A model generated the notes under the pieces. The model was not told the origin of the DNA, did no database searches, and saw only the letters and a program-made list of their open reading frames with translations. A program made the position numbers and the translations under genes. From IMG/VR virus record IMGVR_UViG_3300013094_000003, positions 1-55,499 of that record: a stretch of DNA of 55,499 nucleotides. One strand, 5' to 3'. This document shows, in pieces, positions 14,318 to 55,499 of the stretch. Within the stretch, counting starts at the first letter, position 1. Each line of letters starts with the position of its first letter. The DNA is from a virus. Lineage: Duplodnaviria; Caudoviricetes.

Positions 14318-16240
14318 CTAACCCATTAAATAATTTTGTAAAGATTTTGCCTTAGGTGGTAATGTAACTTGCCCCCCTCTCTTGTGTTTGCGAAGATTTT
14401 CTCTAAAAACATCAAGTTTACGTGCTCCAGCTGCATTATTACCATCCCCTAAATCAGACACTGTTGATGCATCAAATACATATTCTCCATCGCTAAGTCT
14501 TGCATTAATTAAATCATCCTGACCACCGCTATTACCTTTCAAATAACCTATAGGACTTCTAGGGTAATAGGTTTCTTCCATCAGATAAGCATAAGGACTA
14601 TGAGCACTACCGCCGCCTTTCATTCTAACCGGCCTACCTTCTTCATCCTCATACTCAAGCCAACGACCGGTTCTTGCAAACTCTTCTGGTGATAAAACTC
14701 GTCTCCGAACAGAACCCATGTTCTTTATATCTTCTTCTAGTTCCTTTTCTTTTTTCTTTTTTTTCCTTTTTTCCTTTTCCTCTTCAAGTTTTTCTTTTTC
14801 TTCTTCACGTGCTTTTTCTATTTTTGCATCTTCTAGAACTTCTGCTATTGTTTGACGAGAGGCGTTTTTATATCTTCTTTCTTCGTCTGCTTTTTGTTCG
14901 GGAGTTTTTTCCTTTGGGCGGTTTTTATAATTTAAATACAGAGTTCCTAAACCCAATAATTTTTCTGGTTCCGATAAATAATCCATTGTATTATCGGCTA
15001 GTTTTTCCCAAAAACCTCTATCATCCTTATATTTATTTTTCTTTGTAGAATAAGTATTAATATGATTATTATAATAATTGTTATAGTAATTTCTTTCACG
15101 AGCCTTATATTTAGCTTTTTCTTCATCTCCTGCACTGATACCTACGTTTGGTGGTAAAAAGTTATAAGTTTGCGGTAGAGTTCTATTATTATCTGTATTA
15201 ACAGGTTTATAATTCAAGATACCATTTTCAACAGTATCATAAGGAGTTTGAGGCTCATATCTATTGGAAGGTTGAGGATTTAAAAGTTTATTTTCAATAA
15301 TTTTATAAGGAGTTTGAGGTTTATAATCTATTGGTTTATTTAAACTCGTCTCAACAGCTCTATAAGAATTTATAGGCTTATATTCTTGTATTGGTTTATA
15401 ACTATTTAAAGTTATTTGAGGGTTATAGCCATTGGTAAATGGAGAAGAATAATTTAAATTATTTTGAAAGGAAAATTGAGAATTTGCTCCGGAATATCCC
15501 TGTCTAAATGGAGCAGAGGATGTACCTCCCGGAGCAAATTCTCTAAGTCCGGTAGCAGGATTTATCGTACCACTACCTCCTAAACTCTTTAATATGTGAG
15601 CTTCAATAGGATTAATATGGGCAAGCTCAGTATCGCCGTTTCTTCCGTGTCTTCGAATCAGATCGGCAAGTTTTGGTAAGTCCTCATCACCGACAGAGCC
15701 ACCTCTTTTAAATGAAGATTGTATTGGCTTATTATTAGTCATTCCATGAGCTTTTTCATAAAAATAACCTGGACTATCGTTAAATTGGTAATTTTTAAAA
15801 ATATTTTCAACAAACCTTTCTACTTGATTTTTTTCTGCTTCATTCAAATTTAAACTATTACCAATCTCAGTAAATTTGTTTATCAACGTTGGTTCGTCTA
15901 ACTTGCCATTATTTGCATTTAGTGCTTCATTAATGACCATTTGCGATAATTCTTTAGCTTTATTTACTATATCGCTTCTAACAGCTTCTTCTTCACCAAT
16001 AACATCTACTAAGCGTGGAAAGTTAGAATTTCCTTTTTCTACCGCTCCACCTTCTCTAAAAGAATATTGTTGTCCGTCGGTATCGTAAGCATTCCCATAA
16101 GACATATAAGGATCATCATAACCTCCATCTTCATAATGAGAATCAGGCATTTGATTGTCTTGATAAGGGTTTGAATTGTAAGGCTCGGAAGTATTATATG
16201 GAGTGTTATAAGTATTTAAATATGGATCGTAATTTTGCAT
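14318..16240 (-). CDS. Internal virion protein with repeated F/Y-x-x-G-G motifs
   Basis: GRNGDTELAHINP.E...L..LGGSGTINPATGLREF and GGQDD.I.A.LSDGEYV motifs recurrent in podovirus internal proteins. Confidence 0.65.
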   Translation of the reverse strand: MQNYDPYLNTYNTPYNTSEPYNSNPYQDNQMPDSHYEDGGYDDPYMSYGNAYDTDGQQYSFREGGAVEKGNSNFPRLVDVIGEEEAVRSDIVNKAKELSQMVINEALNANNGKLDEPTLINKFTEIGNSLNLNEAEKNQVERFVENIFKNYQFNDSPGYFYEKAHGMTNNKPIQSSFKRGGSVGDEDLPKLADLIRRHGRNGDTELAHINPIEAHILKSLGGSGTINPATGLREFAPGGTSSAPFRQGYSGANSQFSFQNNLNYSSPFTNGYNPQITLNSYKPIQEYKPINSYRAVETSLNKPIDYKPQTPYKIIENKLLNPQPSNRYEPQTPYDTVENGILNYKPVNTDNNRTLPQTYNFLPPNVGISAGDEEKAKYKARERNYYNNYYNNHINTYSTKKNKYKDDRGFWEKLADNTMDYLSEPEKLLGLGTLYLNYKNRPKEKTPEQKADEERRYKNASRQTIAEVLEDAKIEKAREEEKEKLEEEKEKRKKKKKEKELEEDIKNMGSVRRRVLSPEEFARTGRWLEYEDEEGRPVRMKGGGSAHSPYAYLMEETYYPRSPIGYLKGNSGGQDDLINARLSDGEYVFDASTVSDLGDGNNAAGARKLDVFRENLRKHKRGGQVTLPPKAKSLQNYLMG

Positions 16241-16995: not shown

Positions 16996-16997
16996 AA

Positions 16998-17264
16998 TTA
17001 CCTTTCTTTTGTATAATTTAAGATTTTTTCTGTTAATAATTCCAAATATTCTATGTCGCAAATTCTAGCTAAATTTAAAATAAAAATTAGTTCTAGAATT
17101 AGTATAGATATAGAACTACCCCATTCATGAAAATTACTAAAAACCATCATGTCTACTACAATAATTAAAACAAAAACAAGGTAGAAAAAAATAGTTTTTA
17201 TCTTTTTCCAATAAGATGGCTTTTCTTCAAGATAATCTTCATCTTCAAAATGAAACTCAGTCAT
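16998..17264 (-). CDS. Two-TM membrane protein, candidate toxin partner of the Panacea antitoxin
   Basis: Two hydrophobic stretches; overlaps the upstream Panacea gene. Confidence 0.55.
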   Translation of the reverse strand: MTEFHFEDEDYLEEKPSYWKKIKTIFFYLVFVLIIVVDMMVFSNFHEWGSSISILILELIFILNLARICDIEYLELLTEKILNYTKER

Positions 17265-17715
17265 ACTTTTTATAAAATTTATTGTATTCTTCTAAAATAT
17301 CGGACTCTTTAATAACAGAATATAATTGATTCTTTTGAGCTTTATCCCAAGCACCATCTTTTATATGAGTCATATCTACTAATTCACCCGCTGTTTTTTG
17401 CGCTAGTTTTTGATAAATATCAGCTAAAAACAAAGCTTCTTCTTTATATAATAAATTATCTTCCTCTATAGTCTTTATTCCATAGAAAACATTTAAAACA
17501 GGGCGGTTTTTAAAAATTTTAACACGTTGATACACATCCGGAGACACAGGCCCTAATTTCCATGCTTCAAATGGTCTTGAAATAAGAGGTTTACCTTTTC
17601 TACCTAAATAAAATAAATGGGATAAATACATAAGTTTTTGTAATTGAAGATTACTAATATTCCAATTACTTAATGAACATAATTTTTTTGCTGTTTTAAA
17701 TGAACTAATAGCCAT
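17257..17715 (-). CDS. Panacea-domain (DUF4065/GepA/SocA-like) antitoxin
   Basis: SNLQLQKLMY, FEAWKLGPV.PDVY, LVDMTH..GAW. Confidence 0.9.
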   Translation of the reverse strand: MAISSFKTAKKLCSLSNWNISNLQLQKLMYLSHLFYLGRKGKPLISRPFEAWKLGPVSPDVYQRVKIFKNRPVLNVFYGIKTIEEDNLLYKEEALFLADIYQKLAQKTAGELVDMTHIKDGAWDKAQKNQLYSVIKESDILEEYNKFYKKYD

Positions 17716-17729
17716 AAATCACATCTAAT

Positions 17730-18344
17730 TTAATTATTGATTTTTAAACTAGCATCTAAAAATTGCTTTTTCAATAGTTCAAAGTTAGCTATCCCACTTT
17801 TGACAGTTTCAATATTACTGCTGTCTATATTATGAAATTTAGTAAATTCTTTGATATTTACCCGATTATTATTACAAAGATTCATTAGTTCACTAATGAG
17901 GTCTTTACTTTCTTCTTCTTTTTTGAACTTTGGCACACTGTTGCCATCGTCATCTTCTTGAGTAAGGCCTATTATGGCAGATAAAGCATAACGTCTGGCA
18001 TAAGTAATTCCTGCTCCTATTTGTTGGAGTGAATTACATTGTTTCATTACGACGTTTTCTATGCCAAAAATAGATTTTAACCACTGGCCTGATTCATGAA
18101 TTAACAAAGTAACAAGAACCTGCTTATTATCTTTATCTTGAGTAACTAATTGTGAAATTGACAATCCATTATCAGCAAGAGGTTTCTTTACAGCTTGCAA
18201 ACAACTAGCAAGATCAGCATACTTATAACCATAAGCTTGTTTATCCTTGCTAACGTTTTCAATAAGTGATTGTGCCTTACTTAGTGCTATAGCTAAGGCA
18301 TCTATCTTTTCGCTCATTAAGTGTTCGTTCTGATTGTTTTCCAT
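17730..18344 (-). CDS. erf: ERF-family single-strand annealing protein
   Basis: YKYADL, LIHESGQW, Q.IGAGITYARRYALSAIIGL..EDDDG. Confidence 0.93.
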   Translation of the reverse strand: MENNQNEHLMSEKIDALAIALSKAQSLIENVSKDKQAYGYKYADLASCLQAVKKPLADNGLSISQLVTQDKDNKQVLVTLLIHESGQWLKSIFGIENVVMKQCNSLQQIGAGITYARRYALSAIIGLTQEDDDGNSVPKFKKEEESKDLISELMNLCNNNRVNIKEFTKFHNIDSSNIETVKSGIANFELLKKQFLDASLKINN

Positions 18345-23678: not shown

Positions 23679-24290
23679 CTAAAGTTTAAGCCTTTTGGTT
23701 GCGCGCGCGCGAAGCTCTCCTTTTGGGCTAACATACATATATAGTGTACTGCGTGTTATTTTTAATTCTTTGCAAAGATCGGTTACAGAAGTATCTCTAT
23801 TTTTCATAGCGGCTTGAGCCATTCGCACTTGCGCTTTACTTAATTGAAATTTTCTACCACCATTCGTACCTCTAGCACGAGCTGCAGCGAGTCCTGCTTT
23901 TACGCGCTCGCTAATTAAATCACTTTCAAACTCAGCAAGCGATGCAAATATTCCAAAAGTTAAACGTCCTGCAGCGGTAGTTGTGTCAATATTAGCTCCT
24001 TGTCCTGATAAAATACGAAAACCGATATTTCGTTTTGTAAGATCGGTGATAGTTTTGACTAAGTGAGAAAGATTACGCCCTAATCTGTCAAGTTTCCAGA
24101 CTACTAAGACATCATGTTCTCTCAAGGATTTTAAACAAGCCTCTAATCCCGGTCTTTTATCATTTCTACCTGAGGCATAATCTTCGTAGATATAAGCCCC
24201 TTGTACGCCGTGTGCTTTTAGAGCATCTAATTGGAGATTTGTTGTTTGAGAGCCATCTGCTTTTGAGACTCGCATATAACCGACAAGCAT
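23679..24290 (-). CDS. Serine resolvase/invertase with C-terminal HTH
   Basis: GYMRVS catalytic Ser, WKLDRLGR, AEFE..LI.ER...GL.AARARG, HTH; 203 aa. Confidence 0.95.
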   Translation of the reverse strand: MLVGYMRVSKADGSQTTNLQLDALKAHGVQGAYIYEDYASGRNDKRPGLEACLKSLREHDVLVVWKLDRLGRNLSHLVKTITDLTKRNIGFRILSGQGANIDTTTAAGRLTFGIFASLAEFESDLISERVKAGLAAARARGTNGGRKFQLSKAQVRMAQAAMKNRDTSVTDLCKELKITRSTLYMYVSPKGELRARATKRLKL

Positions 24291-33387: not shown

Positions 33388-33694
33388 AGAAATAATCATA
33401 GATCAGTATTTAAAGGGAAATATTACCAATGAATTTAAAAATAATATCCTGGCGGGTTTTAAATTAATAAAAGAGAATAATCCTGTTTTAAAAGAACTCC
33501 TTATGGAATTACAAAATAATCCGATAGAAGCTCTTAAATATGGTGAAAAAATGTTTAAAGATATAGGTGATAATTATAAAGAAGGAATTTTAAAACATAA
33601 TCCTAAACCTTCACATGAAGAATTGTCTTTACTGTTAAACGAATTAATAAAAGAAGATGAGGAAGAAAATAAAGATCTGGGAGAATCAGAATGA
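33371..33694 (+). CDS. Hypothetical protein
   Basis: Overlapping neighbours; ggag RBS. Confidence 0.6.
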   Translation: MKQKCEEIIIDQYLKGNITNEFKNNILAGFKLIKENNPVLKELLMELQNNPIEALKYGEKMFKDIGDNYKEGILKHNPKPSHEELSLLLNELIKEDEEENKDLGESE

Positions 33695-34896
33695 GCAAAA
33701 ACACTCCTATAAAATGGCATACTGCTAATATAAAACTTTCCGAGCTAAAAGAGTATCCTGATAATCCAAGGAAAATAAGCAAGGAAATGCTGGATAAATT
33801 AGTTGCTCATATAAAGGAAGATGGATATCACCAAAGAATAATAGTAGATAACGATTATACTATTATCGGCGGTCATCAGCGCAAAAAAGCTTTATATATG
33901 GCAGGTTACGATGATGATACAGAAATAGAAGTGTTAATGCCGAGTAGAAAACTACTACCTGCAGAAATAGACAGGTTAAATATTAGAGATAATCTAGCGT
34001 TCGGTGAATATGACTTTGATGTACTAACAGAGCGATTTGATATGGAGGAGCTATTATCTTTTGGTATGGATAAGGAAATACTCGCACCTGTATTTGATAA
34101 AACCATATTAGAAGAAATAGGGGAAGAAGAGGAAATAGAACTCCCAGCAGAAGCCACTTCTAAGCTAGGTGATATTTACCTGCTTGGGTCTCATCGTTTA
34201 ATGTGCGGTGATAGTACTAATCCGCAGCATGTTGAAAAACTAATGAATGGAGTAAAGCCGATTTTAATGGTAACTGATCCGCCGTATGGGGTCAATTATG
34301 AGCCTGAGTGGAGGATAGAGAGAGGTAATACAGTTACAGGTAAAGTGCTAAACGATGATAGATACGACTGGTCTGATGCTTATGCGTTATTTACTGGTGA
34401 TATTGCTTATATCTGGCATAGTGCTAAGTATACTCATAAATTTGCTGAACATATAGAGAATAATGGCTTTGAATTAATTAGCCTTATATTTTGGAATAAG
34501 CATATGCATGTTTTGAGTCGTGGTGATTATCATAACAAACACGAGCCAGTATGGTACGGCGTTCGGAAAGGAAAAAATCATAATTGGCAAGGTAAACGTG
34601 ATCAATCTACTGTATGGGATATAGATAATAATATTTATGGGTCTAAAACAAAGGAAGAATCGACAGGACACGGCACACAGAAACCAATAGAGTGTATGCT
34701 TCGGCCTATACTAAATAACTCTGCGCAAGGTGAGAGTGTATACGATCCGTTTGGCGGTAGCGGTACTACGTTAATTGCCTGCGAGAGGTCAAAACGTAAC
34801 TGTTACATGATGGAATTATCCCCAGCTTATGTTGATGTTATAATAAAGAGATGGGAAAAAGAAACTAATAAAAAAGCTGTATTATTGAATGAGTAA
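33691..34896 (+). CDS. ParB-like N-domain plus N6/N4 DNA methyltransferase
   Basis: YPDNPR, IIGGHQR; HRLMCGDS, TDPPYG, HGTQKP, DPFGGSGTT. Confidence 0.92.
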   Translation: MSKNTPIKWHTANIKLSELKEYPDNPRKISKEMLDKLVAHIKEDGYHQRIIVDNDYTIIGGHQRKKALYMAGYDDDTEIEVLMPSRKLLPAEIDRLNIRDNLAFGEYDFDVLTERFDMEELLSFGMDKEILAPVFDKTILEEIGEEEEIELPAEATSKLGDIYLLGSHRLMCGDSTNPQHVEKLMNGVKPILMVTDPPYGVNYEPEWRIERGNTVTGKVLNDDRYDWSDAYALFTGDIAYIWHSAKYTHKFAEHIENNGFELISLIFWNKHMHVLSRGDYHNKHEPVWYGVRKGKNHNWQGKRDQSTVWDIDNNIYGSKTKEESTGHGTQKPIECMLRPILNNSAQGESVYDPFGGSGTTLIACERSKRNCYMMELSPAYVDVIIKRWEKETNKKAVLLNE

Positions 34897-36045: not shown

Positions 36046-36669
36046 ATGAAAATAGTTTCCATACTAAATCAAAAAGGCGGTGTGGGTAAAACTACACTTG
36101 CAACAAATATCGCAAGCAAACTTCACTTAAATGGTTCAAAAGTATTACTTGTTGATTCGGACCCTCAAGGCTCTGCTAGAGATTGGCATGCAGTAGGTAA
36201 TAGTGAAATAGCTGTTATAGGAATGGACAGACCAACTCTTGAAAGGGACGTAAAGAAAATAGCTAATGATTTTGATTGGGTTATCATTGACGGCGCACCT
36301 CAATTAACCAATATGGCGGTTTCTGCTATAAAATGTTCTGATTTAATCATTATACCTGTCCAACCATCACCATACGATATATGGGCATCTGAAGAGCTGG
36401 TAGACGTGATAAAACATAGGCAACAAATTACTGATGGAAATCCAAAAGCTTATTTCTGTATCAGTAGAAAAATATCTACAACTTCTTTAAGCAGTGAAGT
36501 AACCGAAGCTTTAAAAGGATATTCTATGCCGATAATGAAAAGCTATACATCCCAAAGAATTGCGTATGCCAAGTCAGCAGTAGATGGGCAATCTGTTTTT
36601 GATACTACTAACAATGATGCAATACATGAGATTACAAATATAGTAAATGAGATTAAAGAGATATTATGA
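36046..36669 (+). CDS. parA: ParA/ParF partition ATPase (type Ib)
   Basis: NQKGGVGKTT, VDSDPQGS, IIDGAP, IPVQPSPYD. Confidence 0.95.
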   Translation: MKIVSILNQKGGVGKTTLATNIASKLHLNGSKVLLVDSDPQGSARDWHAVGNSEIAVIGMDRPTLERDVKKIANDFDWVIIDGAPQLTNMAVSAIKCSDLIIIPVQPSPYDIWASEELVDVIKHRQQITDGNPKAYFCISRKISTTSLSSEVTEALKGYSMPIMKSYTSQRIAYAKSAVDGQSVFDTTNNDAIHEITNIVNEIKEIL

Positions 36670-36863
36670 GTTCACTAAAAACCGGTCGTCCATCAATAAA
36701 TAAAGAGAAAGCACTTAAACAATTAGAAGATAATAAAAATGCTAATTTAGTAGTTAAGGTTGAGAGGAGCTTTCACAAGGAAATAAAGCGTTATTCTCTA
36801 GAACATGATTTGACACTTGGTGAACTGGTGCATAAGTCTTTACGAGCATATATGGGTAAATAA
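36666..36863 (+). CDS. ParG-like RHH centromere-binding protein
   Basis: Coupled to parA; C-terminal RHH pattern. Confidence 0.75.
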   Translation: MSSLKTGRPSINKEKALKQLEDNKNANLVVKVERSFHKEIKRYSLEHDLTLGELVHKSLRAYMGK

Positions 36864-37092
36864 TGAACTTTATAGAAATAATAAAAACGATATACGAACG
36901 ATATGCCGTTTTCTGAACTGTACGAAAAAAATCGTATAATTGACAACATTACTATCCAATAACTCATTCCAGTTATCTATGCTAGTTTTACCCTTATAAT
37001 TTATCTTTTCTTGTATACAATTATATTTACAATGTATATAATATATAATACAATGTATTTATATCCATTAAAATATAATATAGGTTAATATA

Positions 37093-37344
37093 ATGTATAC
37101 AATTAGCGCTCGTATTCCAGATGAATTGAACGAAGCTTTGTCTAAAGTTGCAAAAGTAATGGAAAGACCAAAAGCATTTTTGATAAACAAAGCTATTGAG
37201 CTATATATTAGAGAAGCAGAAGAAGATATAGAAGATGCTGAAATAGCTCTTGCTGTTATGAACGATAAAACTATGAAATGTTATACTTCTGAAGAAATAA
37301 AAGAAAGATTAGAGGCTAAATATCGTGCAGAACACAATTTATAA
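37093..37344 (+). CDS. RHH antitoxin (RelB-like)
   Basis: ISARIPDEL..L..VA....RPK.FLI..AI; acidic EDIED; palindromic operators upstream (ttgtatacaa). Confidence 0.85.
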   Translation: MYTISARIPDELNEALSKVAKVMERPKAFLINKAIELYIREAEEDIEDAEIALAVMNDKTMKCYTSEEIKERLEAKYRAEHNL

Positions 37345-37591
37345 AGTTAAGTGGAAAGAAGCTGCTGAAGATAACCTAGACGAGCTTCCTTCAGAGATTG
37401 CCTTAAAAATTTACGATAGAGTTGAAAGCCATTTAGTACAAGCACCAAAACAGCTAGGAAAAGCCCTAGTCGGTCAGTATAAAGGTTTATATCGGTATAG
37501 GTATGGAGATTATAGAGTACTATATGAAATAGATCTGCATAGTAAATCAATTATTATTGTTAGAATTGGAAATAGGAAAGAAGTTTATTAA
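37325..37591 (+). CDS. relE: RelE/StbE-family toxin
   Basis: GKAL.G...GLYRYRYGDYRVLYEI, IGNRKEVY. Confidence 0.92.
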   Translation: MQNTIYKVKWKEAAEDNLDELPSEIALKIYDRVESHLVQAPKQLGKALVGQYKGLYRYRYGDYRVLYEIDLHSKSIIIVRIGNRKEVY

Positions 37592-37657: not shown

Positions 37658-38599
37658 TCAATAGTCTATATCACCACTTAAATTAATATCTTTAACTTCT
37701 TCATTACTACAAATAAATTCTATTTCTGTATTTTGACGTATATTTTTTCCCTCTTCAAATGCAAAATAAAAATCATAAAGCTCCTTATTTGTCATTGGGT
37801 GTTTTAAATTATATTTTAAAACAATATTTTCCAAATTTTTTCCGATAAAAAACTGTGCGCCTTCAATAGTTATTTCACTATCATATAAATATAATTTTTG
37901 TAAAGTTGGATGTACACTTAAAAATCCAGCTCCTACATTAGTGATTTTAGAGCTATCTATACTTAATTCTTTTAAACTAGTGTTTCTAGATATATATCCC
38001 GCTCCTTGATCTGTTATCTGATTCTCCGGTAAATACAAATTTTGTAATGTTGTATTATTTTCAATAAATTGTAGAGCTTCATCAGTTAAATATCTACTTA
38101 AGACTAATTTCTTTATTGTTGTATTATTCATAATCAATTGTGCAATCATCATATCAGGGCAGTAACAATCATTAAGATTAAGATCAATAATAGTTTTATT
38201 ACATATAAAAGCATTTATCATTTCTAAAAATTGTTCAAAGGTTTCTTCATCAAATTGTATGAGATTTGCTTCTAAAGATAATTTTTTTAAAGCACTTTCT
38301 GCTAACGCTTTTGCACCGATAGGTCCTATATTATTTTCATAAAGATTAAGCTCTTCTAAATTATTAATACTTGCTAAAGCAATTGCTCCATTATCTCCAA
38401 TACTATTACATGATAAATCCATTTCTGTTATACATGGATTGTTCTTAAGGGCATTTACAAGTAAGGTAACTTGTTCATCATTAAGCCCCTCTTCAATTCT
38501 TTCTCCATCAAAAGTTTCAGCAGATATTGCTAATTTTGTACCAATAAATGTTTTATTTTCAATAGCCTGTAGGAGTATATTAAGTTCTTGATCTTTCAT
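37658..38599 (-). CDS. Leucine-rich repeat protein (RI-like, eukaryote-like)
   Basis: L.L..N.I.D.GA..LA repeats. Confidence 0.9.
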   Translation of the reverse strand: MKDQELNILLQAIENKTFIGTKLAISAETFDGERIEEGLNDEQVTLLVNALKNNPCITEMDLSCNSIGDNGAIALASINNLEELNLYENNIGPIGAKALAESALKKLSLEANLIQFDEETFEQFLEMINAFICNKTIIDLNLNDCYCPDMMIAQLIMNNTTIKKLVLSRYLTDEALQFIENNTTLQNLYLPENQITDQGAGYISRNTSLKELSIDSSKITNVGAGFLSVHPTLQKLYLYDSEITIEGAQFFIGKNLENIVLKYNLKHPMTNKELYDFYFAFEEGKNIRQNTEIEFICSNEEVKDINLSGDIDY

Positions 38600-38677
38600 A
38601 AAAAAATACTTTTATTGTATTTAGGATAGAATAATTGTACCATTATATAATTATAAATCATAATACTTTTAAGTCAT

Positions 38678-39805
38678 ATGGCAAAAGAACGCGAGAATGA
38701 TGGAGAATTCAAACAATATAACCCTACTATTCCTGGAAAATGGAATAACCAGAATCTAAATAATATTGATTATAGACAATATGACCCTAGAGGCATTTTT
38801 ACCAATCAAAATCAAGGTCCAATGATTACTAACGATAATGCCTTAGCAACTGCTTTTTTTAATGCAAGATATAACTATAATCCTGTTGATCGTTCAGCAA
38901 CTTTAAATAGAGATGATAATTGGGGAAGCAATGCAGGAGCTGTACAATTATTTAATGTTAATGCTCCTTTGACACGAGCATTTAGCAGTATGTCAACTCC
39001 CATAAAGAGCACTGCTTTTGGACATTCTGAAAAAATAGGTATGCGTGATGTACTGGATCAGTATATGCAACAGCCGCAAAATGTTAATAATGGAGGATTA
39101 GAACGCCCAAGTCATTATTTTCAATCAAATCACCCGCGAGAGCAACCTCAAGAAATACTTCAAAATTTAGTTCGTAATGCTAATCAATATCGTGATTACT
39201 TACAAAATCAAAACGCTGTTGTAAAAATGTGGTCTGAATACCCAGCTTGTCAAAGAGGTGATGAAAATTGTCAAGATTTTATAAAGAATATATTTCCTCC
39301 TGACAGTAGTTATGGATATACAGTAACTGGTTATAATAAAGAACATAATCCCAAAAAAATTGCTACTGATAGTTTGAAAGATGCATATCTAGCATATATG
39401 GCAAATCTACAGCCACAAAACCAGAATCAAGAAGAAAAAAACGGCGAACATCTACCAAGAGTTCAACAAATAAGGGTAAATCAAAATCTTCCAGGCCAGC
39501 CACAACAAAAACGTCTGAGAACACAAAAACCATTGTTAAGCCATATACTACCGCCATTCAAGTATAATCAATTATCAGCTGAGCAAAAAGCAAGCGGAAA
39601 GTATACTATACAAAATCAATTTAAGCCTCCACGACCAAATGCTCAAAATATTCTTGGTCAACAGCAATATCCACAACATGGAGAGGAAGAAAAAAATGAT
39701 GATTTCAGAAGCGGTGGCCATGTTATGAAATTCAAGCCTAGAAATGGCTTATCTCGTTATCCGAGAAAAAGTTTAGCGAATTTTATAAAAACGGGAAGAG
39801 TGTAA
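38678..39805 (+). CDS. Putative zinc-dependent nucleic-acid deaminase toxin/effector
   Basis: GHSE ... WSEYPAC-x5-C (HxE...PCxnC-like); Q/N-rich tail; C-terminal FRSGGHV. Confidence 0.65.
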   Translation: MAKERENDGEFKQYNPTIPGKWNNQNLNNIDYRQYDPRGIFTNQNQGPMITNDNALATAFFNARYNYNPVDRSATLNRDDNWGSNAGAVQLFNVNAPLTRAFSSMSTPIKSTAFGHSEKIGMRDVLDQYMQQPQNVNNGGLERPSHYFQSNHPREQPQEILQNLVRNANQYRDYLQNQNAVVKMWSEYPACQRGDENCQDFIKNIFPPDSSYGYTVTGYNKEHNPKKIATDSLKDAYLAYMANLQPQNQNQEEKNGEHLPRVQQIRVNQNLPGQPQQKRLRTQKPLLSHILPPFKYNQLSAEQKASGKYTIQNQFKPPRPNAQNILGQQQYPQHGEEEKNDDFRSGGHVMKFKPRNGLSRYPRKSLANFIKTGRV

Positions 39806-39895: not shown

Positions 39896-40645
39896 TTAAA
39901 TCAATTCAAAATCAAAAAACTCATTTTTAGACTCTATATTATAATCACCCACTAAATTAGTTTCAGCAACTTGGCAAGTTGCTGTGTTAATATTGATAGT
40001 ATGCCAATCTACTTCAATAAGAGATATTTGAACTAATAACTCTTCTTTTTCTATTTCTTTTATTAAAAGCAACTCTTTTAACTTGTCTATTTTTTTATCC
40101 TTATCAATTAAAAGATTATCTTTATTATTTAACAACTGATCTTTTTGAGATAATAATTGTTCTTTTTCTAGGTTCTCTTCTTTTAACTTTTTAGCCTCTT
40201 CCAGCTTTTTAGCTTTAATCTTTTCTATTTCTTTTTTATAAATCTTGGTATTATATTCCATTACGTAAAAATTATTATTATCATAATGAACTTTCATTGG
40301 ATGAGCTTTTCCGTCTTTATTAAACCACTTGGTAGGATCAGTTGAATAGCTATCAGGATATAATTCATTTAAACTTTTAATAAATTCTTTCTTTATATTT
40401 TCTTGTTCTTTTTCAGCTAATTGTTTTTTATAAATAAATAAATTACTCTCAATAGTTTTAAATTCTTCCCTATCGACAACCCCTTTACCCCAACTATCAA
40501 CTGGCCAGTCTTTAAAATTTATAGGATACCAATTAGGGTATAATTTAGGTAAAATCTCAATAAATTCCTTAATGGTTTCTTGTTCTTTGCCTTCTTGAAG
40601 TTCAAGTTGATCTGCAACCTGCTCAATAAATTCTTGCTTATTCAT
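39896..40645 (-). CDS. Coiled-coil hypothetical protein, possible effector
   Basis: Duplicated IKEFI..L..LYP unit, KD repeats, C-terminal NLVGD. Confidence 0.65.
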   Translation of the reverse strand: MNKQEFIEQVADQLELQEGKEQETIKEFIEILPKLYPNWYPINFKDWPVDSWGKGVVDREEFKTIESNLFIYKKQLAEKEQENIKKEFIKSLNELYPDSYSTDPTKWFNKDGKAHPMKVHYDNNNFYVMEYNTKIYKKEIEKIKAKKLEEAKKLKEENLEKEQLLSQKDQLLNNKDNLLIDKDKKIDKLKELLLIKEIEKEELLVQISLIEVDWHTININTATCQVAETNLVGDYNIESKNEFFDFELI

Positions 40646-40654
40646 TTGTTTACC

Positions 40655-40831
40655 TCAATTATTTTTTTCCTCTCCTTTTAATTTCTCTTGCTTAGCAAAT
40701 CCACTTTCAAAAACAGCGAAAGCTCCAAATTTAATGTTTAAATCTGATGCAACAGGTAAAGCTTCACTTGCTAAGGCCGTACTGCAACTAAGGATAATTG
40801 TTGATATAAGTGGTATTTTTCTAATTTTCAT
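40655..40831 (-). pseudogene. 58-aa signal-peptide ORF resembling the N-terminus of a rickettsial porin
   Basis: MKIRKIPLISTIILSCSTALA-SEALPVASDLNIKFGAFAVFESGFAKQEKLKGEEKNN*. Confidence 0.55.
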
Positions 40832-40991: not shown

Positions 40992-42626
40992 ATGCATCAG
41001 AATTGTAATCCTATTCATGCCTTTAGTATCTCTGATTTAACAGGGATGTCTATTGCAGATATAAATAATTGGGATCAAAAACTCTCTGTTCTTGAAGAAA
41101 GATGCCTTGCTGAAGGTTCTTTATATGAGTTTTTTAAGGCGGCATGGCCTTATATTGAGGGTAATATGCCTTATGTTGATAGCTGGCATATAAGGGCAAT
41201 AGCTGAACATTTAGAGGCGGTTTACGCGCGGCAAATAAGGAAGCTGATCATAAATGTACCTCCTCGAACTGGTAAAACCAATTTAATATCAGTAGCCTTT
41301 CCGGCATGGGTTTGGATACATAATCCTTGTGAGCGATTTTTAACTGTATCCTGCGTTAATTCCTTAAGCCTTGAGCATGCGCAGAAAAACAGAGCTTTAC
41401 TCGAAAGCAACTGGTATCAGGATAATTGGGGACACAGATTCCCTCTTCTTAAAGACCAGAACGTTAAAAGCTTTTTCCAGAATACCAAAACAGGATACCG
41501 GCAATCAACAAGCGTAGTATCTAAAACTGTCGGTAAAGGCGGTTCAATTATTATTATTGATGACCCTAACGACCCAGGGGACTTATCCGAAATAAAACGT
41601 GAGAACGTAATTAACTGGTGGACGCAAAGAATGTCTACCCGTTCAAATAACCCTGCTAATGACTGCCGAATAGTTGTCCAGCAAAGGACGCACGAGAACG
41701 ATTTAACTGGTTATATCAGAAAGAATGACAGCGAGGATGACTGGGTAGAGTTGGTGCTACCACTGGAATTTGAGCCAAGTCGTAAGTGTATCACTGTTTC
41801 CCTTGGCATAGATCAGGTTACTTGGGAAGACCCAAGAAACAAAGAAGGAGAAGTGCTTAATGACTTACGCTTTGGCGAAAAGCAAGTAAATGAGTTAAAA
41901 AAGTTACTTGGCTCTTACGGATATGCAGGTCAGTGTCAGCAAAGACCTTCTCCGATTGGCGGTGGAATTCTCAAGAAAAAATGGTTTCAGCTATGGGGTA
42001 GCCCTATTAAGCCTAAATTTGATTACATTATCCAGAGCTGGGATACGGCAATTTCCGATGAACCAACAGCGGCATATTCTGCCTGTACTACATGGGGAGT
42101 ATGGGGTGAAAAATCCGAGGATGAGTTATTTAGAATAATGTTGCTCTCTAGTTGGCGTGATCGAGTAGGCTACCCAGAACTCCGTACTAGAGCACAGAGA
42201 CTTGCTAAAGATTATAAGGATACAGGCGAGCATAAGAACTTAACCCCTGCTCAAAGCACTATTGATATTTGTCTTATTGAGGCAAAGGCAACAGGTGATC
42301 CGTTAATTCGGGATTTAAGGCTCGCAGGTATTCCTGCTATTGGTTACACCCCAAAAGGCGATAAGAATGCAAGAGTACAGAGAGCAGCACCATTTATTGA
42401 GTGCGGGCTTATTTATCTGCCAACTGAGGAAAAAAACCATGAAAGGCTAACTCCATTTGCTGAGGAGTTTTTAGAAACAGTGATAACTTTTCCAAACGGG
42501 GAATCAAAAGATTTGGTTGACTCGATGACACAGACAATTTTGTACCTCCGAGACTTTGATACTTTAATTCATACAAGTGATGTTAAGGAAGATGACACCA
42601 TTACTAAAATCAGGAAGTTATACTAA
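40992..42626 (+). CDS. terL: Terminase large subunit
   Basis: INVPPRTGKT Walker A, IIIIDDP Walker B, VVQQRTHENDL, QSWDTA, IEAKATG, DLVDSMTQ. Confidence 0.96.
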   Translation: MHQNCNPIHAFSISDLTGMSIADINNWDQKLSVLEERCLAEGSLYEFFKAAWPYIEGNMPYVDSWHIRAIAEHLEAVYARQIRKLIINVPPRTGKTNLISVAFPAWVWIHNPCERFLTVSCVNSLSLEHAQKNRALLESNWYQDNWGHRFPLLKDQNVKSFFQNTKTGYRQSTSVVSKTVGKGGSIIIIDDPNDPGDLSEIKRENVINWWTQRMSTRSNNPANDCRIVVQQRTHENDLTGYIRKNDSEDDWVELVLPLEFEPSRKCITVSLGIDQVTWEDPRNKEGEVLNDLRFGEKQVNELKKLLGSYGYAGQCQQRPSPIGGGILKKKWFQLWGSPIKPKFDYIIQSWDTAISDEPTAAYSACTTWGVWGEKSEDELFRIMLLSSWRDRVGYPELRTRAQRLAKDYKDTGEHKNLTPAQSTIDICLIEAKATGDPLIRDLRLAGIPAIGYTPKGDKNARVQRAAPFIECGLIYLPTEEKNHERLTPFAEEFLETVITFPNGESKDLVDSMTQTILYLRDFDTLIHTSDVKEDDTITKIRKLY

Positions 42627-44977
42627 TGGCAGTAGGAAGTAGAGCCTTAAAAGAGGCAAAATTAAATAAAGCTGTAAAAAGGCAAACAAAGAAAGAAAAG
42701 GATATTGCGGATTTATCTATCCTTGAGAATCTTGAGCCTGAATTTCTAAATTTTGCTCAAGAAATGCCGATGGAAGAACAAATCCTGCCACAAGAAACAG
42801 GTAGTTTAGATGAACTGGTTTTACCGGAAGAAGAAGCACTTATTTCCCTAGAGGATCAAATCTTATCACGTATGGATAACGAAGAAAAAGAGTTACCCCC
42901 TGATTCTATTCCGTTTAACAGTAATTTTGCCGATGATATTCCAGAAGCAATAAGAGATAAAATAGCTGCTTACTTAGAAGAAGTAACAGCAAAAGATAAG
43001 AAAAACCGCCAACCATGGCTTGATATAATCGAAAAGGCTAAAACCTTACTTGGCTTTAAAATTGAGGAAATACAAGACCCAAACGACGCAAATACTCGCA
43101 AATCTAATTCTTCTATCGGAAATAGTGCGCAAGTTAAGACTTATGATACTACTTTCTCTAGCAGCGTGCTCCGGCTCTGGGCAACGCTTCGTTCCGAGTT
43201 GCTTCCCTCAACTGGTCCTGTAGGATTTAAAACTGATGTTAGTGTGAGCGAAGATTACGAATTAAAAGGCGAGATGGTTAGGGATGCATTAAATGAGTAT
43301 CTTACTGTTGAAGATAAGGGATTTTATCCTGATTACGATCGGTTCTTATTGTACTTAATTTTATACGGGTGTGTATTTCGTAAAATCTACTACGACCCTA
43401 TTACGGGTAAGCCCTTGAGCCGTTTTATCATGCCTGAGGACTTTTTATTTGATAATAATTGCTCAAGTATTACCGAATCAAATCGTCTGACCCATATTAG
43501 GTATCTCTCTAAAAGAGAAATCCTTTTTAACATACAGAGTGGGATATTTTCAAAAGTTGACCTTGATTACCTAGATAGCTTAGGTAGTAGCGATACGGAA
43601 GAAGCAACAGATGAACCTAAACAAAAACAGGTTGATCCAACCGGTTCCCGTTTTCCTTTTTATGAGACACACGAATATCTCGTTTTAAATGATTTTTTTG
43701 ATGAAACTAGCACGTCAGAAGATTATAGCATACCACTACCATATGTTATTACCAGATGCGGTATTACTAATCAGATCGTTTCAGTAGCACCAAACTGGAA
43801 TGAAAACGATCCAACTAGAACAAGAATCAACTGCTTTATTCATTATAATTTATTTCCCGGATTTGATGTTTTTGGACTCGGCCTTGCTCAAATACTCGGC
43901 TCTAATTCAAAGAGCTTAACCTCCATGCAGCAAATGGCCATTGATGCAGCTATTTTCCAGAATTTTCCCGGAGGGATGAAATCCAAGGGAATAAAGACTA
44001 CCAATAATGATTTAACAATATTACCTGGACAATTTGTCACTGTTGAAACCGGTAATTTGTCCTTGCGGGATTCAATTATGCCGCTTCCTTATAATGGTCC
44101 TTCTCCCGCTTTACTTGAATATATTAATCGGATAACCGCTCAGACACAGGAGTTAGCGTCTGCAACAGAGATGGGGCTTACTGAAAATAATCAAAATACG
44201 CCTGTTGGTACTACTATTGCTTTGCTTGAAGTATCAAATCGGATGCAATCGGCAATAATGAGAACAGTTCATAGTAGTTTTAGTGAGGAGTTACAACTCT
44301 TTTATAAAATGTTCAACTTGCCGTCGCTACCTCTGGATAAAGAAAGTTTAAAGGTCATACCTGTATCTGATCCGTCTGTTGAATCTTCTACGCAGAGAAT
44401 CATTAAGGCAGAAAGTATTTTAAAGTTAGCTAGCAGCAATCCTGAGCTACATAACATGAGAGAGGTATATTTAAAAGTATATCAGGCACTTGGTATTAAC
44501 GATATTGATAAAATACTTCTTCCCGAAGCAGCACCGCAAGAACAACAGCAAGAGCAACCTATAGACCCAGCTCTACAGGTACAGATTGCCGATATTGAGC
44601 AGCGGAAACTCGAAGTAGAATCAAAGGAACGTCTAGCTCACTTAAATATTGAAGCTGACGGATATAAAACACAAATGAATATTGAACTTGATAAAGCAAA
44701 GCTAGAACAAGAGAAGTATTTAGCCGAGTTAAAGGCTTCAGAACAACAACAGCTTGCGGAGCAGAAATATCAAATTGAACTTTTAAAACTCGAGCTAAAT
44801 GAGAAAGAAAAAGTAATAGATACGTTAACTAAGGAGCAGGAAATTAACAGTAAGAACGAGCTTGAATTGTTAAAGCTGGAATATAAAGCAAGGGAAGCTG
44901 AGCTTAAAAACCAGATTGAGGGTTTAAGGTCGCAAATTTCATCCATACCAGAAAAAGAGGAGGTTATTTATGGATAA
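42626..44977 (+). CDS. Portal protein
   Basis: Follows TerL; ELLP.TGPV, FRKIYYDP, GLGLAQ.LG, PVGTTIALLE; coiled-coil barrel C-terminus. Confidence 0.9.
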   Translation: MAVGSRALKEAKLNKAVKRQTKKEKDIADLSILENLEPEFLNFAQEMPMEEQILPQETGSLDELVLPEEEALISLEDQILSRMDNEEKELPPDSIPFNSNFADDIPEAIRDKIAAYLEEVTAKDKKNRQPWLDIIEKAKTLLGFKIEEIQDPNDANTRKSNSSIGNSAQVKTYDTTFSSSVLRLWATLRSELLPSTGPVGFKTDVSVSEDYELKGEMVRDALNEYLTVEDKGFYPDYDRFLLYLILYGCVFRKIYYDPITGKPLSRFIMPEDFLFDNNCSSITESNRLTHIRYLSKREILFNIQSGIFSKVDLDYLDSLGSSDTEEATDEPKQKQVDPTGSRFPFYETHEYLVLNDFFDETSTSEDYSIPLPYVITRCGITNQIVSVAPNWNENDPTRTRINCFIHYNLFPGFDVFGLGLAQILGSNSKSLTSMQQMAIDAAIFQNFPGGMKSKGIKTTNNDLTILPGQFVTVETGNLSLRDSIMPLPYNGPSPALLEYINRITAQTQELASATEMGLTENNQNTPVGTTIALLEVSNRMQSAIMRTVHSSFSEELQLFYKMFNLPSLPLDKESLKVIPVSDPSVESSTQRIIKAESILKLASSNPELHNMREVYLKVYQALGINDIDKILLPEAAPQEQQQEQPIDPALQVQIADIEQRKLEVESKERLAHLNIEADGYKTQMNIELDKAKLEQEKYLAELKASEQQQLAEQKYQIELLKLELNEKEKVIDTLTKEQEINSKNELELLKLEYKAREAELKNQIEGLRSQISSIPEKEEVIYG

Positions 44978-53302: not shown

Positions 53303-55499
53303 ATGAGTAATAATTTTAATCCAGGATTTGACAGAGAAAAAGCAGCGTTTCTAGAACTAGCTAATAGAGGAGATGGTCTGACTCCAATTGACTATTTATA
53401 TGCAAAAGAAGCTAGTTTTGGAAGCGTATTATCTTCTGCTATTACCGGTGGAACGGCCGAGTTTTATACAATATATGTAAATGGAATTGAGTCTTCCAAT
53501 ATTACTAACAGTAATGATATTATCACTAACAGCTTAAAGTTGAGGAATCAGTTAAATGATTATTATGTTGGCTTTACTGCCGGTAGCTTGACTCAAAGTA
53601 CAATCTGGAGCTTACCATTACAGGATGGAACTGATGGGCAGGTACTTGCTACAAACGGCAATCGTATTCTATCGTTTATAGATGCTGGCGGAGGAGGTGA
53701 AGGTGCACCAAAGGATGCTACTTATATTATTAGGCAAGAAAATGAAGCTTTAACTAATGCCCAAGTATTAAGTTCACTTGAAACGGGAATCGCTAAAATT
53801 GAAACAGATGGATATATCGCTATTGCTGTTCCAGATGTCGATTATGCAACTGTTGAAACATTAGAAGAGTTAGCAGCAGAAGCTGAGGCTAGTGCAGAAG
53901 CTGCTGCAACTTCTGCTACAGAGGCTACGGGAGCTGCAGCAGAAGCAACAGGAGCTGCCAGCGAAGCTAGTGTTTCAGCAATAGCTTCTTCTGCCTCAGC
54001 AGCAGCGGCAGCAGCTTCTGCTGCAGCTGCCTCTGACTATAGTGATAAGGCATACGAATATAAGGAAAAAGCCAGAGAATATAAAAATGATGCTTTTGAT
54101 TATAAAGAATCAGCATCTAACTCTGCAAGTAGTGCTTCTAGTTCTGCTTCAAATGCCTCGTCAAGTGCATCTGAAGCTCATACTTATTTAGAAACACTAC
54201 TTTCTACAGGATTAAATCAGCTTCCTAATAGTGGTGATGTAGACATCAATAATTATAAAATTATTAATTTAGCAAATGGTGTTTCTGGAACAGATGCCGT
54301 AAATGTTAATCAATTGAGTTCTGCAATTTCCGGTTCAGCAGCACCAAATACTGCTACATATATTATACAAACTGCAAATACTTCATTAACAAATGCACAA
54401 GTTTTGGGGTCTTTAAGTACAGGGTTACTAAAGAACACGACAAGTACTGGTGTTCTAACAATAGGAATAGCTGGAACGGATTACTATAGTCCAGGTAATC
54501 CTACAACTATAAAAGATGATGGTAATAGCCTATTTATCGGAGCTAATACCGGCCTTCTTTCTCCTGCGGGATACAGTAATTTAGGTATTGGTTCATATGC
54601 ATTAAATTCATTAAGTACTAGCACTTCAGGAGATGCCAATATAGCATTAGGATATGGTGCTCTTAATTTAAATACAGATGGTTTTAATAATATTGCAATA
54701 GGCCAATATAGCTTACCTTCAAATACTATTGGTCATCTTAATATAGGAATTGGTGCTAATAGTCTTAATAATAATACAACTGGTTTTAATAATATTGCAA
54801 TAGGAGATTCCTGCTTAAAAGTAAATACTACGGGAAATTGCAATATTGGAATTGGTTATCTCGTCTTAAATACTAACTTTACAGGAAGTTATAACATTGG
54901 AATTGGCGATGGTTCTTTACTGGGAAGTGGATCTAGAAGTGTAGCTATCGGATATCAAGCTTTACAAGCTTCCATCTTAAACGACTGTACTGCAATAGGA
55001 TACCAGGCCGGCTACAATACTACGTATTATGGTGCTAACGAATGCGTTTTTATAGGTTCAGGAACAACTATTGGGGCAAATAACCTAACGAATGCGATAG
55101 CGATTGGTTACAACTCTACAATTGGTGTTTCTAATGCGATGCGATTAGGAAATGGTGTGAATGTAGGAATCAATCAGGCATCACCAGCTTATCCATTACA
55201 CATAAGCAATGTTAATAACATTTCAGCATTATATTTAGAAGCAACAACAAGTACTCCATCTATTCCTGCGTCTGGTGGATTGATGTATACAAGTGGCGGC
55301 GAGCTTTACTACAAAGGTAATTCTAAAACAGTTAGTTTAACTGCTGTTAGCGGCGTTACTGCTGGCAGTTATACGAATGCTAGTATTACGGTAAATGCAC
55401 AAGGGCAATTAACGGCAGCAAGTAGTGGCGCAACTCCATTATTAGTTAGCAATAATTTATCAGATTTAAACAATGCAGCAACAGCTAGGACAAACTTAG
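53303..55499 (+). CDS. Tail fibre, N-terminal part (missing from the ORF track; continues at base 1)
   Basis: Open from ATG 53303; Ala/Ser-rich coil, YadA-neck-like KIINLANGVSGTDAVNVNQL, head repeats, NNLSDLNNAATARTNLG. Confidence 0.9.
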   Translation, partial: MSNNFNPGFDREKAAFLELANRGDGLTPIDYLYAKEASFGSVLSSAITGGTAEFYTIYVNGIESSNITNSNDIITNSLKLRNQLNDYYVGFTAGSLTQSTIWSLPLQDGTDGQVLATNGNRILSFIDAGGGGEGAPKDATYIIRQENEALTNAQVLSSLETGIAKIETDGYIAIAVPDVDYATVETLEELAAEAEASAEAAATSATEATGAAAEATGAASEASVSAIASSASAAAAAASAAAASDYSDKAYEYKEKAREYKNDAFDYKESASNSASSASSSASNASSSASEAHTYLETLLSTGLNQLPNSGDVDINNYKIINLANGVSGTDAVNVNQLSSAISGSAAPNTATYIIQTANTSLTNAQVLGSLSTGLLKNTTSTGVLTIGIAGTDYYSPGNPTTIKDDGNSLFIGANTGLLSPAGYSNLGIGSYALNSLSTSTSGDANIALGYGALNLNTDGFNNIAIGQYSLPSNTIGHLNIGIGANSLNNNTTGFNNIAIGDSCLKVNTTGNCNIGIGYLVLNTNFTGSYNIGIGDGSLLGSGSRSVAIGYQALQASILNDCTAIGYQAGYNTTYYGANECVFIGSGTTIGANNLTNAIAIGYNSTIGVSNAMRLGNGVNVGINQASPAYPLHISNVNNISALYLEATTSTPSIPASGGLMYTSGGELYYKGNSKTVSLTAVSGVTAGSYTNASITVNAQGQLTAASSGATPLLVSNNLSDLNNAATARTNL

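Follow-up and report, generated by a model that had tools for sequence, protein, structure and literature searches.

A deaminase-like phage protein with a C-terminal motif in common with a tape-measure-like protein and a divergent leucine-rich-repeat neighbour

Layout of the gene and its surroundings

The sequence considered here (the window) is the whole of IMG/VR virus record IMGVR_UViG_3300013094_000003, a complete tailed-phage record (Duplodnaviria; Caudoviricetes) of 55,499 bp that CheckV estimates to be 100% complete and whose G+C content is ~25-39%. The gene under study (38678..39805, plus strand) encodes a deaminase-like protein of 375 residues built, in order, of a disordered N-terminus, a deaminase domain, a linker rich in Gln, Asn and Pro, and a basic tail; its ATG start is supported because homologues begin M-[AS/V]-K. 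The deaminase-fold domain covers residues 40-250 (38795..39427) as modelled by AlphaFold2 (AF2) from a 93-row alignment. H116-S117-E118 (39023..39031), in which conservation and the model together predict a zinc ligand and the catalytic glutamate, opens helix 2 and lies exactly where an earlier note on this DNA, made from the letters alone, had located an HSE motif. The second half of the predicted zinc site, W185-S-E187-Y-P-A-C191-x6-C198 (39230..39271), takes in the end of strand 3, the Glu typical of the clade and, leading into helix 3, two cysteines predicted to bind zinc. The SEYPAC motif given in the same note is present (S186-E-Y-P-A-C191), with C198 following after six residues and not the five that the note had counted.

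The linker (residues 246-342; 39413..39703, plus strand) is of low complexity and predicted to be disordered; residues 244-369 have a predicted local distance difference test score (pLDDT) below 50 in the full-length model, and the linker cannot be aligned among homologues. The 33-residue tail (residues 343-375; 39704..39802, plus strand) has nine Lys or Arg and no acidic residues. It holds FRSGGHV, an instance of a [FY]-[KR]-x-GG-x-V motif, and KSLANFI, an end of the type K-S-L-x-N-[FY]-[IL].

Upstream, and divergent from the deaminase gene, lies the gene for a 313-residue leucine-rich-repeat (LRR) protein (37658..38599, minus strand) with repeats of the ribonuclease-inhibitor type (Pfam LRR_6, 3.6e-18). 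The two are separated by a 78-bp AT-rich intergenic region (38600..38677) that is presumed to be the site of both divergent promoters; in a scan for promoters and terminators around the deaminase gene, matches, promoter-like ones included, were no commoner than in shuffled sequence. In the other direction the deaminase gene stands a short way upstream of the large terminase gene (40992-42626), itself followed by the portal gene (42626-44977). No plus-strand open reading frame (ORF) of at least 50 residues occurs between 39805 and 40992, in agreement with the earlier remark that no small immunity gene is adjacent.

A divergent family with the deaminase fold

A word-indexed search recovers three homologues of the deaminase-like protein at 33-45% identity, and their alignment has G115, H116, E118, W185, E187, C191 and C198 as invariant positions. 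When 1.84 billion cluster representatives were searched with a profile, the family grew to 95 representatives at E<=1e-3, of which 73 also pass E<=1e-10 and 38 pass E<=1e-30. Its conserved domain, at profile positions ~20-245, is nearly always N-terminal in proteins of 200-750 residues whose C-terminal parts are unrelated and of low complexity. An alignment of 70 sequences, drawn from the 96 proteins after removal of nine rows among P0048-P0077 that were short or partial and of every row beyond P0080, has a mean column identity of 9%; its sole invariant columns are N85, H116, E118, C191 and P207, and C198 is conserved in at least 90%. In the 93-row alignment, fragments included, the Glu, both Cys, the Asn and two Pro all remain at 90% or above. 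Neither W185 nor E187 varies in a set of 14 sequences, and the cysteines are spaced C-x6-10-C across the family. Because the His, the Glu and both Cys are invariant or nearly so despite the 9% mean column identity, the pattern is, judged on the alignment, the signature of a maintained active site. That same pattern makes it very unlikely that the protein is a catalytically dead deaminase-fold module with a purely structural or binding role, as the unusual cysteine spacing (C-x6-C here, about 6-10 in the family) might be taken to indicate.

Other features of the family are more scattered. Weak SWIRM-domain matches, the second commonest kind in Pfam, occur in 4 of the 70 aligned members (best 8.3e-4), one member (P0009) has two tandem deaminase-like domains, and many have Ser- or Gln-rich tails. 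A tblastn search of 50,697 phage records with the protein gave no match. Profile searches located one viral locus, three short metagenome loci and one genome locus related to that of the window; the genome locus belongs to a metagenome-assembled genome (MAG) of the Rickettsiaceae, where the chromosomal copy sits among housekeeping and flagellar genes with no phage neighbours. The same MAG also holds a terminase homologue (37% identity), and the family was found in one of 301 genomes of its order, namely the MAG itself. In one of the short loci (L006:1062-2388) the family member is apparently frameshifted into two overlapping ORFs, the C-terminal part running on into ankyrin repeats. On two low-GC metagenome contigs (L004:1760-2491 and L005:1340-1576) transposase and insertion-sequence helper fragments adjoin family members, suggesting that deaminase genes of this family also reside in symbiont-like genomes rich in insertion sequences.

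The AF2 model of residues 40-250 from the 93-row alignment has a pLDDT of 92.6 and a predicted template-modelling score (pTM) of 0.90; it replaced a first model built from four sequences, whose pLDDT was 47.7 and whose Foldseek search was uninformative. In the numbering of the model, where residue 78 corresponds to protein residue 117, the order of elements is a helix, three or four strands, helix 78-91, two insert helices (114-138), strand 142-147, helix 159-166, strand 172-175 and helix 186-205. The HSE motif opens helix 78-91, the segment VVKMWS forms strand 142-147, C191 lies in the loop preceding helix 159-166, and C198 opens that helix. Thus the model presents the traits of the deaminase superfamily: a three-layer alpha/beta fold, H/C-x-E at the N-terminus of helix 2 and two cysteines near helix 3.

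Comparison with 48,161 representative chains by VIA-align gave 99 matches at Z>=2 and 21 at Z>=5 but none at Z>=8, the value below which a match may reflect an arrangement common to unrelated folds. The leading matches are blasticidin-S deaminase (Z 6.8, root-mean-square deviation 2.8, 99 aligned residues), guanine deaminase (6.5), ADAT2 (6.4), TadA-8e (6.2) and a cytidine deaminase (6.2). The best 20 (Z 5.0-6.8) are all deaminases except 7f00_B, and among the best 50 of the 99 only 7f00_B, a ribosomal chain and EspB-EspK are not named as deaminases or as domains of the deaminase-like fold, in which we presume the ATIC and FdhD matches to belong. JAB/MPN domains are placed in that fold in passages of Iyer et al. 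2011 (PMC3239186). In Foldseek, the top rows from the PDB are likewise nearly all deaminases (APOBEC3G and 3H, Rib2, guanine deaminase, TadA and cytidine deaminase). The deaminase fold that the earlier note had proposed to check with Foldseek is in this way borne out by the 93-row model and its neighbours. The fold is accepted despite the middling Z scores because the match list is uniform and the invariant residues are exactly placed, and it is highly probable that the domain is a zinc-deaminase fold akin to the toxin deaminases.

Several results weigh against this assignment. The protein has no accepted match in Pfam or the PHROGs (RhoGEF at E 0.14 is the only Pfam hit, and there is no PHROG), and the single protein has no match by sequence among solved structures at E<=10. 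The VIA-align scores of 5-6.8 lie within a range that is common for unrelated folds, Foldseek with the 93-row model gave nothing at E<=0.001 in the PDB or BFVD (best PDB 0.12), and the C-x6-C spacing is unusual for deaminases, in which a PCxxC-like spacing of two to four residues is usual. The family profile, when run against solved structures, had a lone match at E<=10, to a sortase (E 0.064), which was regarded as chance.

With respect to clade, the commonest Pfam match in the family is PF14440 (XOO_2897-deam), found in 8 of the 70 members at E<=0.1 (best 1e-4); where coordinates were seen, these matches run from strand 3 to strand 4 and cover profile positions ~42-91 of 101 at 13-17 bits. 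The nearest ESM-Atlas clusters are three XOO_2897-like ones (0.89, 0.89 and 0.88), followed by MafB19, Toxin-deaminase, SCP1.201 and SsdA. Against a close relationship, no family member reaches the PF14440 cut-off of 27 bits and the protein itself has no match to it at E<=1; the ESM scores are below 0.9, each just a lead, and the recognition value of 2197 is below the 2300 mark. A search for PF14440 members in the window and 401 genomes of the phylum found none, the search's own controls also being silent. A DddA-like Pfam match was seen in one family member, below threshold (E 0.019), and it too maps to the segment with the two cysteines.

The architecture allows a more detailed comparison with the XOO_2897-like clade as described in passages of PMC3239186. 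Both have the HxE and two-Cys zinc motif; both have a Glu between strand 3 and helix 3, here E187 just after strand 142-147 (consensus WSER in the 70 sequences); and both end after helix 4 without a strand 5, the last elements of the model being strand 172-175 and helix 186-205. An extra strand at model residues 63-66 is also consistent with the description, and Y214, conserved among near homologues, falls at the end of modelled strand 4 and not clearly in a loop. Both also occur without a classical small immunity gene in endosymbiont-type genomes. Unlike that clade, whose domain forms the C-terminal tip of toxins of type II, VI or VII secretion systems (T2SS, T6SS, T7SS) or of RHS and PAAR proteins and is accompanied by SUKH4 immunity, the present domain is N-terminal, has an LRR protein as its partner, scores below the Pfam gathering cut-off, carries a two-helix insert between helix 2 and strand 3, and has the C-x6-10-C spacing. 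No domain of the T2SS, T6SS, T7SS, RHS or PAAR type was found by Pfam in the protein or its neighbours. The family is consequently placed as a divergent sister of the XOO_2897-like clade within the helix-4 division, and is not called a member of PF14440.

Other deaminases are more remote. The DddA/SCP1.201-like, MafB19, SsdA and Toxin-deaminase groups share the fold and motif and appear as lower-ranked ESM neighbours, and toxin deaminases are matched structurally (DddB at VIA Z 5.1, a Pseudomonas syringae type VI secreted deaminase toxin at 4.4 and DddA at 3.9). SCP1.201 and MafB19 differ in belonging to the C-terminal-hairpin division, according to passages of PMC3239186, whereas the present family ends after helix 4. 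The AID/APOBEC proteins are part of the helix-4 division, show a W-S-x-x-P-C-like context before the first Cys and supply APOBEC3G and 3H to the top Foldseek rows. However, their best Foldseek E value is 0.15 and their VIA Z at most 5.2, neither significant, and the family is without the strand 5 and the two further C-terminal helices of classical AID/APOBEC enzymes (passages of PMC3239186). The family does not belong to that group. Of the earlier description as a polymorphic-toxin or APOBEC-like deaminase, the toxin-type zinc-deaminase-like domain therefore stands, while "APOBEC-like" proves too specific, the nearest relatives being XOO_2897-like and other toxin deaminases.

The same comparison bears on the notion of an ordinary nucleotide-metabolism enzyme, of the dCMP, dCTP or cytidine type, that tunes pools for phage DNA synthesis. 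The fold is common to phage dCMP deaminases, the S-TIM5, T4 and PBCV-1 enzymes match at VIA Z 4.5-5.1, and dCMP deaminases are among the non-significant BFVD rows. Such a role is nonetheless extremely unlikely: there is no Pfam match to the dCMP or cytidine deaminase families, the nearest neighbours in sequence and features are toxin deaminases, the gene lies outside the replication module, and a long disordered linker, a basic tail and an LRR partner are all foreign to metabolic deaminases.

The tail and the 640-residue tape-measure-like protein

The tail of the deaminase-like protein echoes a second product of the window, a 640-residue tape-measure-like or ejection-type protein (14318..16240, minus strand) with four copies of a GG-x-V motif, starting at residues 61, 177, 540 and 619. 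It is the C-terminal copy (residues 619-640; 14321..14386, minus strand), ending HKRGGQV...KSLQNYL, that the tail resembles. A pattern [FHMYW][KRE]xGGx[VAH] occurs in only two of the 392 six-frame ORFs of at least 40 residues, once in the deaminase-like protein and four times in the 640-residue protein; a repeat of the tail at the DNA level within the window was rejected, the motif scan having found the motif in these two genes only. Across the family, GGx[VI] is present within the last 50 residues of 19 of the 96 proteins, as against a mean of 1.24 and a maximum of 6 in 500 composition-preserving shuffles, and against 8 of 549 non-terminal 50-residue windows of the same proteins. In aligned family tails the common pattern is [FY]-x-[KR]-GG-x-[VI], after which come a basic stretch and an end that is hydrophobic and LxxYL-like. 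Two family proteins, P0003 (309 residues, 33% identical elsewhere) and P0072 (84 residues), carry the 33-residue tail of the window protein with differences only at two residues beside the GG.

A natural fusion joins the two partners in one polypeptide. P0093, a 926-residue protein encoded on a 53,581-bp contig, matches the deaminase family profile over residues 3-224 (hhalign 96.8%, E 2.2e-10) and the 640-residue protein over residues ~470-926, including its C-terminal end (BLASTP E 4e-22 and 4e-18). Neither P0093 nor another family member, P0007, was found in IMG/VR. The C-terminal echo reported in the earlier note is thus real, recurs (19 of 96 against about 1 expected) and has a natural fusion beside it.

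The character of the 640-residue protein is indicated by its relatives. It has weak matches to tape-measure PHROGs (E 7e-4 and 5e-3), and over its last 76 residues it shares 49% identity with the C-terminal end of gp065c of Caulobacter phage GB2A, which is annotated as a tape measure and lies between genes annotated "virion structural", "tail fiber" and "lytic tail". The 560-residue and 219-residue proteins of the window match GB2A gp067c and gp069c, and in a related 53-kb phage (L002) homologues of the window's 560-, 640- and 772-residue proteins are adjacent. Residues 187-235 of the 640-residue protein form a conserved block, GDTELAHINP...GGSG..NP.TGL, that is 47-65% identical to hypothetical or "tape measure" proteins; its carriers are diverse uncultured freshwater phages, a Methylophilales phage and P0093.

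The LRR partner, the phage and the proposed function

The LRR protein has 33 homologues besides itself at E<=1e-20, and the divergent arrangement of LRR and deaminase genes is conserved at three loci: the window, the related phage L002 (53% and 45% identity) and a metagenome contig (L004). No LRR gene stands beside the deaminase gene in the short loci L005 and L006 or at the Rickettsiaceae MAG locus. For three further LRR/deaminase pairs the longest contigs are of identical size (58,398, 16,667 and 6,410 bp), suggesting that these may also be co-located. A complex prediction for the deaminase domain with the LRR protein scored 0.56 (runs of 0.56, 0.51 and 0.67) against 0.00 for the best control, a verdict of weak support; contacts coincide between runs to 68% or more, and the partner has a pLDDT of 82 or higher. 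The method was calibrated on 80 solved complexes, of which 58 reach the mark, and on 110 mismatched pairs, of which 2 do; scores of 0.60 or under account for only 7 of the passing solved complexes but for both passing mismatches. LRR immunity proteins are listed in passages of Zhang et al. 2012 (PMC3482391). The LRR gene that had been named as a candidate partner in the earlier note accordingly keeps that standing, on three conserved loci and a complex score that counts as a weak pass, and that its product inhibits the deaminase is possible at rather less than an even chance. Its divergent orientation and 313-residue size, both atypical for immunity genes, count against such a role.

A conserved pair of this sort might also be a toxin-immunity, superinfection-exclusion or abortive-infection module of a prophage or plasmid that is never packaged, with the LRR protein restraining the deaminase until a trigger and the tail binding a component of incoming related phages, such as the partner of the ejection protein. 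The three conserved loci and the weak pass of the complex prediction would fit, as would the adjoining ParA gene and RelE/ParE-type toxin-antitoxin pair and the different positions of the gene pair in two phages, as seen with accessory "moron" genes. In the window the deaminase gene lies shortly before the terminase gene and in L002 it lies between terminase and portal; a position beside or within the packaging module in both phages argues against an unpackaged module, and the P0093 fusion to the presumed virion protein better fits a structural association. This explanation is held to be improbable.

The plasmid-type genes belong to a wider set. The window encodes ParA with a small partner, a RelE/ParE-type toxin-antitoxin pair, a serine resolvase and a fusion of a ParB N-terminal domain to a DNA methylase (36046-37591, 23679-24290 and 33691-34896), a maintenance set that suggests a phage-plasmid lifestyle. 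The nearest phage terminases in GenBank are those of Roseobacter phages CRP-902 (41% identity) and CRP-901 (40%), with phages of mostly alphaproteobacterial hosts coming next; no tRNA genes occur in the window. Tail-spike genes are also present, and two tail-spike-like ORFs (53303-55498 and 2-1978, both plus strand) reach opposite ends of the record and match the same PHROGs (4636, 6002 and 23837), such that they may be a single long gene split when a circular or permuted genome was linearised. Immediately after a tail-spike gene, within the structural region, is a patatin-like phospholipase gene (1993-3087, plus strand; Pfam 1.1e-21), which encodes an effector-type or lysis-type enzyme; phage WO of Wolbachia has a patatin-like enzyme of comparable kind. 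A recombination- and defence-related cluster (16342-18344, minus strand) encodes a RecE/Cas4-like exonuclease (PHROG 4.7e-33), a protein with a SocA/Panacea antitoxin domain (5.9e-18) and an ERF recombinase (2.2e-20). Two minus-strand ORFs lie near the deaminase gene: a 249-residue protein (39896-40645) in which a pair of similar repeats (EFIE...LYP..Y) at the N-terminus is accompanied by a coiled coil rich in Lys and Glu, and which has no family match and no counterpart detected in L002, and a 58-residue ORF (40655-40831) with a signal-peptide-like start followed by the apparent beginning of an outer-membrane beta-strand protein, which may be a gene remnant.

Some of these observations lead to the main rival explanation, one that is partly compatible with the mechanism proposed below. 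The deaminase and LRR proteins might be a eukaryote-directed effector pair, accessory cargo of the phage-plasmid of an intracellular bacterium, released on lysis or secreted, with the tail serving to direct secretion or localisation; a comparison is offered by the eukaryotic association module of Wolbachia phage WO. Consistent with this are the chromosomal family member in the Rickettsiaceae MAG with its 37% identical terminase homologue, the member fused to ankyrin repeats (L006), the SWIRM matches in 4 of 70 members and the long low-complexity tails of many others, the ribonuclease-inhibitor/RanGAP-like type of the LRR, and the patatin-like phospholipase on the same phage. In addition, toxin deaminases of the XOO_2897-, OTT_1508- and APOBEC-like types that lack immunity genes are described from the genomes and prophages of Orientia, Rickettsia, Wolbachia and Amoebophilus (passages of Iyer et al. 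2011, PMC3239186). However, a eukaryotic targeting signal leaves unexplained why the tail copies a motif of a protein of the phage structural module and why the P0093 fusion exists; the chromosomal Rickettsiaceae copy is without such a tail; and just one of the 301 genomes of the order of that MAG has the family. A eukaryote-directed pair is considered unlikely.

Precedents exist for the loading of toxins and other proteins into phage particles. The internal proteins of phage T4, which have an N-terminal capsid-targeting sequence, and the Dar proteins of phage P1 are loaded into heads and injected with the DNA. Their signals are unrelated in sequence to the putative signal described here, which is C-terminal and copied from a tape-measure-like protein. 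For the MuF toxins of temperate phages a capsid-like delivery was proposed, as set out in passages of Zhang et al. 2012 (PMC3482391) and Jamet et al. 2017 (PMC5576092), and the likeness lies in a toxin domain linked to a phage particle protein, proposed loading into the capsid, delivery on infection and immunity of the lysogen. Unlike in the MuF toxins, the present link consists of a short motif at the C-terminus or, in P0093, of fusion with a tape-measure-like protein, and the toxin domain is N-terminal; no MuF domain was matched by Pfam in the protein or among the 25 commonest families of the 70 members, and the word "deaminase" is absent from the main text of PMC5576092. A passage of Iyer et al. 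2011 (PMC3239186) raised the packaging of a Clostridium deaminase toxin into capsids.

The explanation preferred here, to which we assign a probability of about 0.55 as a whole, is that of a toxin-type deaminase loaded through its tail and inhibited by the LRR protein. After ~40 disordered N-terminal residues the protein would have a zinc-dependent deaminase domain (~45-245) in which H116, C191 and C198 are predicted to bind zinc and E118 is predicted to act as the proton shuttle. The reaction would most likely be conversion of cytosine to uracil in nucleic acid, with single-stranded DNA as a first guess by analogy with the XOO_2897 clade, members of which deaminated cytidine in single-stranded DNA in a reporter screen according to a passage of a preprint (bioRxiv 10.1101/2023.05.21.541555). 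A disordered linker of ~100 residues would join this domain to the 33-residue basic tail, which amounts to one copy of the short linear motif of the 640-residue protein and would dock the enzyme onto whatever partner that presumed virion protein uses. The deaminase would be a late product that is packed into particles and passes, together with the ejected DNA, into the next bacterial cell, and in the producing or lysogenic cell the LRR protein would bind and inhibit it in the manner of an Imm-LRR-type immunity protein.

The step of loading into virions through the tail, taken by itself, is put close to, but below, an even chance, and four points bear against it. The deaminase of the related phage (P0005) is without the GG half of the tail and keeps only the second half, so that the motif is not essential; when the tail by itself served as query, only P0002 and P0003 were recovered among proteins of 206-657 residues, with no wider set of cargo proteins; the virion status of the 640-residue protein comes from homology, annotation and synteny; and a DNA deaminase injected with the phage genome could damage that genome. 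A more general form of the proposal is on the doubtful side. It would hold that a portable C-terminal motif, [FY]-[KR]-x-GG-x-[VI] with a basic stretch and an LxxYL-like end, copied from a tape-measure or ejection-type protein, is a virion-loading signal that loads a new clade of toxin-type cytosine deaminases for injection, while an LRR inhibitor with a divergent promoter protects producing or lysogenic cells, all within a lineage of ~53-58-kb phage-plasmids of alphaproteobacterial, possibly Rickettsiales-like, hosts.

Toxin deaminases in endosymbiont prophages, capsid-linked MuF toxins and LRR immunity proteins are already in print. Four elements appear to be new, namely the deaminase clade, the motif found also in a tape-measure-like protein, the natural fusion, and the conservation of the LRR pair; a narrow literature search, confined to papers with their supplements excluded, found none that describes the family or the motif. 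The deaminase assignment alone is still a useful annotation of an orphan family. If the full explanation is true, the family would constitute a new deaminase clade of 95 representatives with a distinctive build (the insert between helix 2 and strand 3, the C-x6-10-C spacing and the missing strand 5), and neighbouring toxin-deaminase clades have already been turned into base-editing tools. The phage would load an enzyme by means of a short motif of its own ejection or tape-measure-type protein, a simple and transferable cargo-loading signal, and LRR proteins would extend to dedicated inhibitors of nucleic-acid deaminases. The finding would also bear on how phages of intracellular and symbiotic bacteria manipulate their bacterial or eukaryotic hosts.

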